Positions 15,001-24,000 of a DNA stretch of 27,172 bases are shown here, piece by piece. Within the stretch, counting starts at the first letter, position 1; every line of letters starts with the position of its first letter. The stretch lies in the IMG/VR virus record IMGVR_UViG_3300029745_000181; one strand, 5' to 3'. The stretch comes from a virus. Its lineage: Duplodnaviria > Heunggongvirae > Uroviricota > Caudoviricetes. Position numbers: made by a program.

Positions 15001-18000
15001 CATCATACCTGGCGCAGCTATGCGTTCTTCCTGCTGGACGTAATGCCGGAAAGAACGGCTGAACACTACCGCAACAAGATAGCAGTTTACCTGCGCTGGT
15101 ATCAGAACCGGGGATTCCCGGATGATATCCCGGATGAACAGGAAAATGATCTGGGCTGCCGGGATGTTCCCTCCTGGCGACGTATTTGTAAGACTCTCAT
15201 AAAGAATGATTTCTGGTGCCGAACGCTCTCCTTCAGCCCCAACAAACCCCGGCACTATGAACGTTACCTGCAGCGTATGAATGAAAGGAGGAAGGAATGG
15301 GGAATTCTGTGACACCAGAGGTGGAGGTGCTGAGCAAGATGATTCGACAGTACTTCAGTCAGGAACAATCTGAAGAGAAAACCATACAGGCCCTGAACCA
15401 TCTCCGCTGCGTACTCCATGAGATCAGCCCCTTTGCTCAAGAACCAGTGGACTGTGTGCTGTGGGTAAAAGCGGATGAAATTGTCGCTAACGATTATAAT
15501 CCCAATGTCATGGCCCCAAGCGAAAAAAAATTACTGAAACAATCTCTGGAAAAAGACGGTTTTACTCAACCAATTGTTGTTTCGGAAGAAACAAGCCATT
15601 ACCTGGTGGTGGATGGTTTTCATAGGCAGTTACTAGGTAGAAGAACAGTTACTGGAAAACGCCTGAAAGGCTGGCTACCAGTAACCTGTATTAATCCAGA
15701 CCGAAAGGGACAAACCTCACGTATTGCCGCGACTATCCGACATAACAGAGCCAGGGGGAAACACCAGATAACCTCAATGTCTGATATTGTCAGAGATCTT
15801 TCACGTCTTGGCTGGACTGATGAACGTATCGGAACAGAACTGGGGATGGACCAGGATGAAGTTCTGAGGTTAAAGCAGATTAGCGGGCTAACGGAGTTAT
15901 TTCAGCAGGCAGATTTCAGCCCTGCATGGACTGTTACATAAAGTTAGGTTAGGCCTGTGGAGCCGGGGAATCGGAATTAAACATCTTCCCTCCCCGGTAA
16001 ATACAAATAAGGGCTGAACATCATCCCGACTACCTCAGATCACTTAATAATATATCAAGATTATTTTGCGCATAAATGCTATTCGCCATTACTGTTGCTG
16101 CTTCTGGCGACTTTCCAAGAGCAATAAATATATCCTTAAGGCTGATTGGAATTGATGAACCATGCGGATCGCGCCACTCACCGCAAATTCTGTGAGTTTC
16201 ATCACAAAGCCTGAACGCATCCCAACCTCCATATTGACCAAAAATTATGTCCATTGACTCTATTTCTGCGGGCGATAACTCCCCCAGCTCATCAACAGAA
16301 GAAAATGTACGCCACATTTCAACCTTATGATCCGCTACATCAGATATCCATGATTCCCACGGACTGTACTCGTTTTCGCTTCCATCCTTAACCAAAGAAT
16401 ATGTCTGCGATAAAACGGGTCCTTTGTTCATAGAGAAATAATGATCACCACTAATGGGAAAACCATACAACTCCATTGCTTTGCGGTCAGAGAGATACAT
16501 CAGCTTAATGAAACGCATAGATCCGCCATGTTTTTTCAGCAAATACGCTGCCATTTACGCAACTTTTTCTTCATTAAACATAAATCGGCTCTCTGTCTCA
16601 CATGAAATACTCTTTCTGACTATATGTTAATAGCTCCGGTTATTACAGGTTAATGTGTGTTTATTTCTTAATCAGCCCCGCACTTCCGTACGGGGCCATT
16701 TCTGTTAATCCACTCCCACTTTTTTGTTGTACTCGCGGTTAAAGCGATCCACGGCAACCTTCATATCCCGCTCTACCGATTTCACCATCGCCGCCTGCTG
16801 CGCCAGACTGAGAGAACTGTCGGCATAAATGGCATCGCGCTGTTTGCGCAAATCCTTCAGTCTCTTCCGGGTATCCTGCATAAGCCCGTTCATCAACAAT
16901 TTTCCGTTGTTCTCGTCAATGAACGCCGTTCTTTCTGCACCGGTCAGACTCTTCAGCTCTGCGTGATACTGCGCAACCTCTGTCATCCGGTCGTACATCT
17001 TCTGCTGGTCTGCATACGGCATCACCTCACCCGAAATTTTCCCCAGGAAGGGCACCTGCTGTTCCGGTATATCAATACCATGCAGCGATTTCACCGCCGC
17101 ATCCGTGGTTTTGGAAATGAAGCGCCCTGTCCCTCCGGAGATATAGTCAATCCAGAATTTCAGCGATTCCGGTGTGATATCCACCGCGCCGGGACGATAC
17201 TGGCTGCCACCTGAGAACGCATTCAGCCAGGATGCAAACGCCTTGTACGCTTCTGGCGTTGAACGTCTTCCCAGCTGGCTGTCAGGTTTTGGTGTACCAA
17301 ACGGCATGTTCTCCTGGTAAATCTGCGCCCCCATGAAGTTTTCGTTCATGGCAAGATTCGCAAACGGACGCAGAATTGTCGGTGCTGCATTTTTCAGCAA
17401 TGCCCCGGACAGCGTTTCCGACGTCTCACTGCCAATCGGGCTGAATGCCCCCAGGATACCACCGACAACATTACCGGCAGCACGGGACGCCGTCAGGTCG
17501 CCCGCTGCCACACCTTCAGAGGTATGCCCGAGCAGGAAGAAAACGTTGTACCCGTAAGGCAGAGGAATACTCCAGTACTCTCCGGCCCTGCCCCCGAACA
17601 TCGATTTCATAATGACGAGGTTACGCTCTTTCACATGATACGGCACCTTGTCGTACCAGTTAACCCCGTCATCATCCTCACCCGCCACACTGCGGTTAAG
17701 CGAGCCAAGCAGATAACCCGCTCCCACAGCTGCAAGCGCGATTTTCTGCGGTACATTGAGATTCTTCCAGCGAAGGCGCTCCAGTAACGGCCCGTCGCCA
17801 TTAAGATGTCCGAGCGTTCTCACCAGGTTTGCGGTCCCCTGAATGCTGGCGTTGGCAAACATATACAGCGAGTTCATCAGCGCTCCCTGCTCACCACGAC
17901 GGTTAAAGTTCACCGTCATGTTTTTGGCAAGAGATGCCGCCTGCTGGCGTGACAAACCGGCATCACGGGCGTGTTTATAGGCAGAAAGACGCAGAGCGTT

Positions 18001-21000: not shown

Positions 21001-24000
21001 ATCGAGAAGCGCTGAACGACGCGGCATGTCACTGCTGTTGATCGCTTTCATCACGCCTTTAAACGCGTCGTAAACCTCCTGACGTACCGGATATTCCGCA
21101 TCAACATATCTGCCGTCTTTAAATACGCGCCCGGCACGTTGTGCTTCCGTCATATAGTCGCCACCTGACGTGATCTTCCCGTCAGTGGAAACATCATAAC
21201 GACCAAAATAATTATCCAGTGAATGGAACCATTCGTGGGCCAGCGCCCCCGGTCCGTTACCTTTTGTCAGGTTGATTGCCACCTCACCCGGCTCATAGTG
21301 TGCCGCCGCCTTACCCTTACCACGGGCACCAAAAGCAAGCCCAAGACGACCATTCAGGGAAAGCGCTTTTGTCGGAACGTTCAGCACGTCAGCCAGGTCA
21401 TGCAGCGAGTCATAAGCCCGGTTCAAATCAGCCTGACGACGCGGACCTTCCACATAATTACCAAACTGCACACCACGGAAACCAAACGCATCACTGAACT
21501 GCTCCGGCGAAACATCCCCTTTGCGGCGTTCTGGTCCGGTGCGGTCGCGGTTAGTGGCGTTACGCTGCTCCTCACGCGAAATCTCCCGCATCTCCTTCAC
21601 ATGACGAACAAGCTCATCACGATGTGAATCAATGTACTTACGCGCATCACTGGCTGACTTAAAACCACCTCTCTCTCACCTGAAACGGGTGCCATATCGG
21701 CTGAACCTCAGCAACCAGTTGACGGGGACTTTTGTCCCCGTCGCGGTTTTCCTACTGCTTACACTGTAAGAACGCCGCAAACTCCGCTCCCCACAAATTC
21801 AGCCGGAACTCACACAACGAGCCGTGTAACATCCAGATGGTGAAGATTACCGTCATACAAATTGTGACGGTGATGAGCGATTTTTGCGACATAGCGCTTG
21901 CCTCCTGAGTGGAGAGGCGCTAACCTTCTACTTGCTTAAGGTATGATGGTTAGGGCCTCGGGTTAACATTAAAGTTGACTCGGGGCCTTTCCACATCAGG
22001 CCTTCAGGTTCACCTTCCAGCCATCAGCCGAAAGGCACCCGCGCATAATCTACGATTTTTGCCCTGCACGGGCAACAAAAAACCCGCTATCACAGCGGGT
22101 TATGACATATTGTCGGGTATTACTCAGAATTTCAGGCCAATGCCTACAATAACCCCACTCGTGCGCCAGTCACCGGATCCGGAGCTTTCATACGCGACAT
22201 CCATAGCAACACTTTCATTCAGGTTAAATTGTGCACCAGCAGCCCATGCAAGTGCTGTTTTTTTAGTACTCTTGCTTTCAGAAAAACTACCGGCACCATG
22301 ATTAAGATTGTCGTTAATTTTCAAGTCAGTGGTGACTTTTGCAACCCCCATACCAGCCATTGCATACACACTGAGGTATTCGTTAAACCGCCACGAAGGA
22401 CCCGCTAACAGGCTCCAGTAATTCGCTCTGATATCTGTTCTTCCTGAAGCTGCCGGATTTTTAACCTCTCTGGATTCATCTCCTGGGTTAACATCAATAA
22501 ATGCCTGCGCATTAGTCATAGAACGCGCCCATGTAAAAGATGTTATAACACCAATCTCATCCGTTATCTCATAACGATACCTGATGTTCATCCCCTGAGG
22601 AGATTTGCCTTTGCCATCATGCCCCCGGACAGAAGCATCTGCATATTCGCCTGAATTGAAGTAGTGTCTGTTTGTAAAACGGTTAAAAGTATCAAGATTA
22701 TAAAGACTTAAATCCTTAACAAAATTGTTCAGTCCAGAGAGCTGAAGATGAGCGTATCCGAAAGAAACTGTACTGTCACCTTGTGCTGCACAGGCAGGGG
22801 CTGCTACAAAACTCATCACAAAAGTTGTGCACGCAAAAATAATTCTGGCATGTTTCATTTTTAGACTTTTCCTATAATAAAATAACCCCGTATTATCTAA
22901 GATGAATTTAGTTTTATTACTTAATATTCATACTGACAGGCATATCAGTCATATATTGATGAATTAATGACCAGCACTTTATCTATATACGGCTTCCGAA
23001 TATCCCATGTTGCACGACCGGAATAATGCTCACAGGAATATATTTTATTTCCTGTAGCCCCCGTTGATGTGGTGTAAATCGGTCGGTCATAAGGTGTACG
23101 CTGCCAGTTATAATACCCAACCAGTGCAGGCATAATTGCACATGGATATCCGAGGTCTTTTTCAAATTTGATATCAACAGGTATTAACTTCGCGTCAAGC
23201 AGCATCATTTCGCCATGGTAAATCATCTCACCCGACGGGTTATACATGGCAATACCATACTCAGAAGGTTGAGTAACCATATTCGCAAAAGCATAAACAG
23301 TCGTAACACCAGGATTCGTTCCCCTGACAATTTGATGAAGCCTTAAGGCATGATATCCATCAATCTGTTCATGTGTGTACATGACATCGGCCTTTTTCTC
23401 TGTTCTGATAAAGAAAAAACAACTTTTTCCTGACGGGATTGATGTTTTAAAAAAAGCCTTCTCAGTCGCCGGAATAGTTCCCTTATTGATCAGACACTGA
23501 GGCGTAAACCCCGGGCTTATCCACAAGCTGCCATCTGGTTTCGTAATGCTTAAACCATACATACAACTCACCCCCAGAATGTATAAATATATGACCCCAT
23601 CCCCTGCTCAAGATTCGACCACGTCACCGTATTGCCATTAATGGTTATCTTCGGTACTTTCCGGTCCTTAAATACATTATTCCACGGAAATAATGAACAG
23701 ACTGCCTGCAATGTTTTCCCTTCTGGTTTATTCGTATACGTTTTTGATCCCGACTCCGCCGTAAACCTGTCCAGGAAAAATATGGGAGTAAGCACGCCCG
23801 TAACATTAACATTGTTTCTGTTGTATATTGCAAAACCATATTCTGCCAATGTCAGCCTCCGGCTCAGCTTAACCTGCCTATGCGAACAGCCAGGCGTCCG
23901 TTCTGGTCATAAACTTCAATTTTATCATTGCGGATCACCAGCCCAACATTCTGATTAGAGTAACGAATTGTCAGTTGCCCCTGCGACGTAACACTAAAAA

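Follow-up and report, generated by a model that had tools for sequence, protein, structure and literature searches.

A giant minus-strand reading frame in a ynfG prophage of Escherichia coli is probably a 5'-truncated remnant of a polyvalent-protein gene of Stx-type phages

The window analysed here, i.e., the whole stretch of 27,172 nt of the IMG/VR virus record IMGVR_UViG_3300029745_000181 (Caudoviricetes), contains on its minus strand an uninterrupted frame of 1,631 codons (16705-21600) whose first codon is GTG, and which appears in the six-frame list of open reading frames (ORFs) as the original prediction, made from the sequence alone, had stated. In that prediction, the ORF was taken for an entire giant gene whose start and leader were unusual. 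We consider instead, with a probability of about 0.9, that the ORF is a 3' remnant, truncated at its 5' side, and that it derives from the last late gene of a short-tailed prophage of the 933W/phi24B type (Sepvirinae) inserted in ynfG. The gene of about 2,792 codons is cut by a deletion at 21672/21673, and the retained 3' portion, from this junction to the stop codon (16705-21672, minus strand), represents 58% of it according to blastn, PHROG 616 and a codon comparison.

The retained portion encodes several domains, all on the minus strand. At its 5' end lies the C-terminal stub of an LPD5 domain (21487-21597; amino acids 2-38 of the ORF), which covers positions 109-144 of the 144 of the Pfam profile, the domain being cut by the deletion. 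It is followed by a zincin metallopeptidase domain together with LPD1 (20767-21483; amino acids ~40-278, with LPD1 at 199-278) that contains the motif HEWFH (amino acids 122-126; 21223-21237), and by a second zincin-like domain (20161-20613; amino acids ~330-480) with the motif HEIIH (amino acids 389-393; 20422-20436) and a conserved downstream E445. Then come MuF_C (19570-19839; amino acids 588-677; PF18819, 7e-18), a PBECR domain (BECR-fold, RNase-like), and a constant, mostly alpha-helical C-terminal module (16708-19440) that includes LPD38 (amino acids 1314-1519; 17044-17661). The Pfam matches to LPD5 (fragment), LPD1, MuF_C and LPD38 are all above the gathering score. Neither Pfam nor NCBIfam assigned an NTPase, helicase or methylase/methyltransferase domain to the ORF, in agreement with the original prediction. 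The proposal of a low-complexity C-terminal half was not borne out, since the composition of this half is ordinary (minimum 40-residue entropy of 3.3 bits) and its fold is confidently predicted. The ORF was also considered as a membrane protein, a reading that was discarded because no 19-residue segment exceeds a Kyte-Doolittle value of 1.4. No meaningful match emerged when the PDB was searched by sequence, either with the ORF protein or with the profiles A1 and A2, and the top-ranking hits were low-complexity or coiled-coil noise.

The truncation is evident in the comparison with full-length relatives. The PHROG 616 profile aligns with the whole ORF, yet only through positions 1163-2793 of its 2793. 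At the DNA level, the ORF shares 99.7% identity with the 3' region of a gene of E. coli UPEC-245U, the closest genome, where the annotated coding sequence has 8,379 nt and encodes a 2,792-amino-acid "LPD38 domain-containing protein" with a complete LPD5 at amino acids 1050-1199 followed by the same Pfam domains as the ORF. The blastn alignment of the window with an undeleted locus (L001) consists of two collinear blocks, i.e., window 1-21673 against L001 39597-17928, and window 21672-27172 against L001 11322-5824, and the retained part of the gene is collinear with L001 17928-22896 (99.1% identity). Five small genes, together with the initial 3,410 nt of the giant gene, make up the 6,605 bp that are missing from the window (L001 11323-17927). 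The junction (21672-21673), which lies inside LPD5, reads GGTGAGAGAGAGGTGG in the window, and the octamer GGTGAGAG is present at each of the two breakpoints in L001. The five conserved small genes, corresponding to vb_24B_43 to vb_24B_47 of phage phi24B, are absent from the window save for the first 24 nt of the first one. Codons 1-1,137 of the giant gene were deleted, and the next 24 codons were left upstream of any in-frame start, so that 1,161 codons are lacking overall.

The direction of the change is given by an undeleted metagenome scaffold (L009). On the tail/lom/hok side, this scaffold shares 99.93% identity with the window up to the junction, beyond which it runs on into the five genes and the 5' portion of the giant gene. 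Thus, the full-length gene is the ancestral form and the window carries a deletion. Between the ORF and its full-length relative, 16 synonymous and 2 non-synonymous codon differences were found. This pattern points to earlier purifying selection and a recent deletion, and it is silent on the present constraint of the remnant.

The deletion also explains the unusual start. As the original prediction had described, GTG 21600 is not preceded by a Shine-Dalgarno sequence (SD), and ATG 21591 is directly abutted by AAGGAG; moreover, none of the in-frame ATG, GTG or TTG codons within the first 150 codons of the ORF has a properly spaced SD. Both candidate starts are internal LPD5 codons of the full-length gene (…DELVRHVKEMREI…). 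A promoter was not found near the start of the ORF either, and the promoter/terminator scan gave fewer sites than shuffled sequence. What the deletion has created is a 32-codon out-of-frame fusion ORF (21597-21695, minus strand), formed by the vb_24B_43-like ATG with its GAGG, the first 8 codons of that gene, and a stretch of the giant gene that is read out of frame. The TGA stop codon of the fusion ORF (21597-21599) overlaps GTG 21600, and termination-reinitiation from this fusion ORF would be the only visible route for the translation of the remnant.

The ~470-bp leader that had been proposed upstream of the ORF is not a leader but a hok/sok-type locus (21720-22040, minus strand) plus the 5' stub of the vb_24B_43-like gene. 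This locus comprises a Hok/Gef ORF of 46 amino acids between lom and the deletion junction (21752-21892; Pfam, 4e-8), a sub-threshold match to sok (21881-22040; 40.7 bits vs. a Rfam gathering score of 59), and the perfect 9-bp hairpin GACGGGGAC/GTCCCCGTC (21720-21743), just 3' of the hok stop, which was correctly noted in the original prediction. All three peculiarities, i.e., the atypical start, the absence of an SD and the apparent leader, are therefore consequences of the 6.6-kb deletion. Genes for the tail-tip fibre, Lom and Hok lie upstream of the ORF on the same strand, in a synteny that matches phi24B. The annotation of phi24B contains no hok gene at the equivalent place.

To establish the distribution of the deletion, complete RefSeq E. 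coli genomes and assembly collections were searched. The 4.9-kb stretch was found by megablast in 427 of 5,426 complete genomes, annotated as "LPD38" or "LPD5 domain-containing protein", and the 5' half of the gene in 425, essentially the same set. A 600-nt probe spanning the junction matched none of the 5,426, its two halves matching separately and breaking at 21672/3. By contrast with the complete genomes, the exact 1,628-amino-acid product starting at ATG 21591 is present in 81 blocks of the assembly collection, including two isolate genomes (GCA_900449285.1 and GCA_949768945.1), the further carriers being many ENA metagenome scaffolds. The exact look-up of the GTG-start product returned nothing, and a pattern search of the junction in genome_contigs, viral_contigs and metagenome_contigs gave no match. 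An identical 31-nt junction is present in all six fetched loci (L002-L007), the window is 100% identical to one of them, the metagenome scaffold L004, over 20,468 nt, and no carrier has an internal stop in the remnant. The allele marks one clonal gut E. coli lineage, and the deletion is recent. In another record (GCA_052411635.1, 8060-12955), the DNA of the ORF is identical and open, yet the gene list gives no product there; it is possible that this record annotates the stretch as a pseudogene.

The original prediction had admitted that the long frame could prove to be an assembly artefact, and a mis-join of two prophage fragments might in principle also account for the truncation. E. coli genomes hold up to five related prophage places, which invites such mis-joins, and the window has an identical counterpart in a metagenome scaffold. 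Nevertheless, the same junction with the same flanks occurs in two isolate assemblies, in contigs of 4.97 and 5.05 Mb, as well as in many independent metagenome assemblies obtained with different assemblers, and microhomology at the junction is typical of a real deletion. Since the identical junction recurs in independent assemblies, we regard an artefact as very unlikely.

The two HExxH motifs noticed in the original prediction are real and correspond to zincin-type sites that are conserved across homologues, while about 0.036 such motifs would be expected by chance for an ORF of this composition. In domain 1, whose predicted fold is zincin-like, 80 sequences share H101, H122, D129 and E213 without exception, and at least 90% of them have E123 and H126. 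This arrangement fits the phage-type metallopeptidase (MPTase) described by Iyer et al. (2017; PMC5512222), with a His ending strand 2 and an Asp three residues past HExxH. In domain 2, whose fold was modelled less confidently, H389 is conserved at 97% and E390, H393 and E445 at 100% in a 114-row alignment formed by the query and 113 representatives, each from one 50%-identity cluster. Judging from these alignments, both motifs appear to be conserved gluzincin-type sites of predicted metallopeptidases. The LPD5-zincin-LPD1(-zincin) module matches 5,904 representative clusters, lying nearly always in the interior of proteins with 2,000-5,700 amino acids. The gluzincins anthrax lethal factor, MtfA and PPEP also have HExxH and a downstream Glu, but they share 11-15% sequence identity with the domains of the ORF, which are predicted peptidases embedded in a polyprotein.

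The MuF_C domain has been interpreted in two ways. Iyer et al. (2017; PMC5512222) place it among the RNase-like domains of the BECR fold and consider Mu's own MuF-C inactive, whereas a 2026 preprint on phi24B calls it a peptidoglycan-degrading metallopeptidase domain (10.64898/2026.04.10.717836). In the phi24B protein gp47, the HExxH zincin domains (equivalent to amino acids 101-213 and 389-445 of the ORF) are separate from MuF_C. Mapping two conserved gluzincin sites, distinct from MuF_C, in a widespread protein of Stx phages is a result of modest value. Regarding the C-terminal half, its model has a predicted local distance difference test (pLDDT) of 81.5 and a predicted template modelling score (pTM) of 0.78. 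The C-terminal module, of about 910-950 amino acids, resembles terminal parts of numerous polyvalent proteins of phages (template modelling score, TM-score, 0.6-0.86; Foldseek, BFVD), and its comparison with the PDB gave no informative fold match. The last ~950 amino acids form a constant, confidently folded helical module that has no solved relative and is common to polyvalent proteins with differing N-terminal effectors.

The family to which the remnant belongs is well represented. By tblastn, 180 phage records contain the protein with 95-98% identity, most of them from Stx1- and Stx2-converting short-tailed phages. In phi24B (Sepvirinae), lom is followed by vb_24B_43 to vb_24B_47 and then by vb_24B_48, of 8,424 nt, the last gene of the genome, and the ORF shares 94% DNA identity with vb_24B_48 in a match that ends again at 21673. 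The 8-kb ORF of phi24B (CM7) was reported to be expressed in lysogen cultures, its expression being linked to prophage induction (Riley et al., 2012; PMC3342100), and the 2,811-amino-acid gp47 was detected by proteomics in purified phi24B virions, although not in the cryo-EM density, and proposed to be a capsid-packaged ejection protein (10.64898/2026.04.10.717836). LPD1, LPD5, LPD38 and MuF-C (PBECR) were defined as domains of polyvalent proteins, LPD38 being phage-only, and the zincin MPTase domains were proposed to process polyproteins or to attack host targets (Iyer et al., 2017; PMC5512222). The ORF, which combines several unrelated effector and LPD domains including LPD38 and lies among phage late genes, has the features of a phage-type polyvalent protein, but the length of ~2,790-2,811 amino acids, the native start and the ~1,050-residue N-terminus of an intact orthologue of phi24B gp47 or 933W are absent. 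The assignment to polyvalent virion proteins in the original prediction was thus right as to the family, which is defined by LPD5, LPD1, MuF_C and LPD38 and whose phi24B member occurs in the virion, while the alternative of a free-standing effector or toxin has no specific support, PADLOC giving no match. The gene family is already catalogued (Pfam LPD38, LPD5 and LPD1; Iyer et al., 2017; PMC5512222), and this copy is an ordinary one.

The orthologues of phi24B (vb_24B_48/gp47), 933W, VT2-Sakai (H0150) and other Sepvirinae Stx phages are 94-98% identical over the retained region and share the domain order LPD5, LPD1, MuF_C and LPD38 as well as the position as last late gene after lom. Compared with them, the copy of the window lacks the first ~1,161 codons, the start codon and the five preceding genes, and, unlike Stx phages, the prophage is inserted in ynfG and has no stx gene in the part seen. 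[quoted passage not shown] (2017; PMC5512222) described, and the copy of the window is a truncated example of these. The giant virion proteins of the Burkholderia DC1/Bcep22-type and Ralstonia GP4-type podophages have in common with it the C-terminal module of ~800 amino acids (26-27% identity; PHROG 10089); they are annotated as "DarB-like" or "transglycosylase/helicase/methylase", and they carry N-terminal transglycosylase, helicase and methylase effectors, none of which is present in the ORF. The DarB protein of P1 is, like the members of this family, a large virion-packaged protein (established knowledge cited in PMC5512222), but it is a methyltransferase-helicase, and neither of these domains is found in the ORF. 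A "DarB-like" membership was hence rejected, given that this label derives only from a PHROG whose match coincides in part with the LPD38 module.

Other members of the family differ in their N-terminal regions. In Salmonella enterica, a protein (P0283) and its relatives, of ~1,605 amino acids, have an unrelated N-terminus of 267 amino acids joined at the position equivalent to amino acid 1452 of the 2,792-residue protein, and these non-partial proteins consist of zincin-2, MuF_C and the C-terminal module. In an E. coli protein of 1,578 amino acids (P0270), a divergent LPD5 is joined directly to the region that follows LPD1.

In intact phages, the protein, of ~2,790-2,810 amino acids, is composed of an uncharacterised N-terminus of ~1,050 residues, LPD5, zincin-1/LPD1, zincin-2, MuF_C (PBECR) and the LPD38 module of ~950 residues. 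The intact gene is transcribed on induction and its product is incorporated into the virion, as shown for phi24B. The product would be packaged in the capsid and ejected together with the DNA. The constant C-terminal module could act as a shared chassis for incorporation and ejection, and the N-terminal parts as exchangeable effectors; the gluzincin domains would cleave the polyprotein or host targets, and PBECR would act on RNA. In the lineage of the window, the microhomology-associated deletion of 6,605 bp removed the five upstream genes together with the 5' end of the giant gene, and the remaining frame, having no ribosome-binding site of its own, would owe its open state solely to the recent and clonal origin of the deletion. 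The remnant is most likely non-functional, a pseudogene-like relic of an already known gene.

The prophage that carries this allele is in decay. Compared with the intact prophage of UPEC-245U (NZ_CP049845.1), that of the isolate GCA_900449285.1 shows two further internal deletions of 8.7 and 2.3 kb. The first one removed the 3' end of the Rz gene, the genes for Rha, TerS, TerL and the portal protein, and an N4-gp56-type capsid gene, and the second one affected the DUF6682/tail-fibre region. Since the terminase, portal and capsid genes are lost in this isolate with the same allele, a product of the remnant could not be packaged. Other carriers of the allele have insertion sequence (IS) elements in ibrA, beside the gene of a Panacea-domain protein, or upstream. 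The prophage of this lineage is decaying and defective.

Several points weigh against the view that the ORF is a dead remnant. Its frame is intact over 4.9 kb, with just 2 non-synonymous differences and no decay inside, and the overlap of the fusion ORF stop with GTG 21600 could permit coupled translation. The Salmonella proteins of ~1,605 amino acids indicate that roughly this domain content can be a natural unit. Moreover, the loss of head genes was seen in an isolate that carries the same allele, the window itself ending inside the tail genes, and the virion and ejection role of the family comes from one preprint and inference. The intact frame, the possible coupling and the Salmonella proteins would favour a genuine complete gene, i.e., a natural short polyvalent form with a non-canonical start that is still made and used, for example by a helper phage or the lysogen; the Salmonella forms share its C-terminal ~1,340 amino acids, and gene callers predict the 1,628-residue product from ATG 21591. 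However, the Salmonella forms begin elsewhere with an N-terminal region of their own, whereas here the breakpoint cuts LPD5, no SD is present, and five conserved upstream genes disappeared in the same event. In addition, the junction is confined to one lineage and occurs in none of the 5,426 complete genomes, against ~425 with the full-length gene, and the gene list of GCA_052411635.1 omits the product although the DNA is identical. Hence, we consider a genuine short gene improbable. We are equally doubtful that the truncated allele is alive in the sense that the fusion ORF, with its native ribosome-binding site, drives reinitiation upon late transcription to yield a shortened zincin-zincin-PBECR-LPD38 protein. 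If this were true, such a protein, whose content would resemble the natural Salmonella forms of ~1,600 amino acids, might act in trans, being packaged by or interfering with a superinfecting Stx-type phage, or as a factor borne by the lysogen.

An exaptation of the remnant as a stand-alone zincin/RNase toxin or as an anti-phage or exclusion factor, possibly with the Panacea protein as its antitoxin, can be conceived from the two conserved zincin sites, the PBECR domain and the Panacea (SocA-like antitoxin) ORF located directly downstream on the same strand. However, the Panacea gene is equally found 3' of the full-length gene in intact prophages, so the pairing is unspecific; PADLOC assigned no family to the ORF at E <= 0.001; the ORF itself lacks start signals; and the allele, apparently clonal, shows no indication of having spread or been selected. 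Such a role therefore seems to us highly improbable. Under the favoured reading as a deletion remnant, the giant ORF whose start had looked atypical is a false lead that can be removed, being the relic of a catalogued family whose phi24B member was recently found in the virion, and the natural deletion allele serves as a marker of a clonal gut E. coli lineage with a decaying ynfG prophage.

Concerning the neighbouring genes, no toxin partner was recognised for the SocA/Panacea-domain (antitoxin-type) ORF (16030-16554, minus strand), which lies directly 3' of the giant gene. The ibrA (PAPS-reductase plus DUF3440) and ibrB genes (14086-15941, plus strand) are convergent with the giant gene, as the original prediction had pointed out, though the Panacea-domain ORF intervenes. 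IbrA gave weak PADLOC matches to BrxP (1.6e-7) and DndC (4.5e-5). The end of the prophage lies inside ynfG (window ~12200-13889, plus strand), and the reference annotation places a short 4Fe-4S (ynfG) fragment after ynfF (9757-12183). This end of the window holds a truncated AntA fragment (12723-13010) and then a full AntA/P22_AR_C antirepressor gene (13098-13889).

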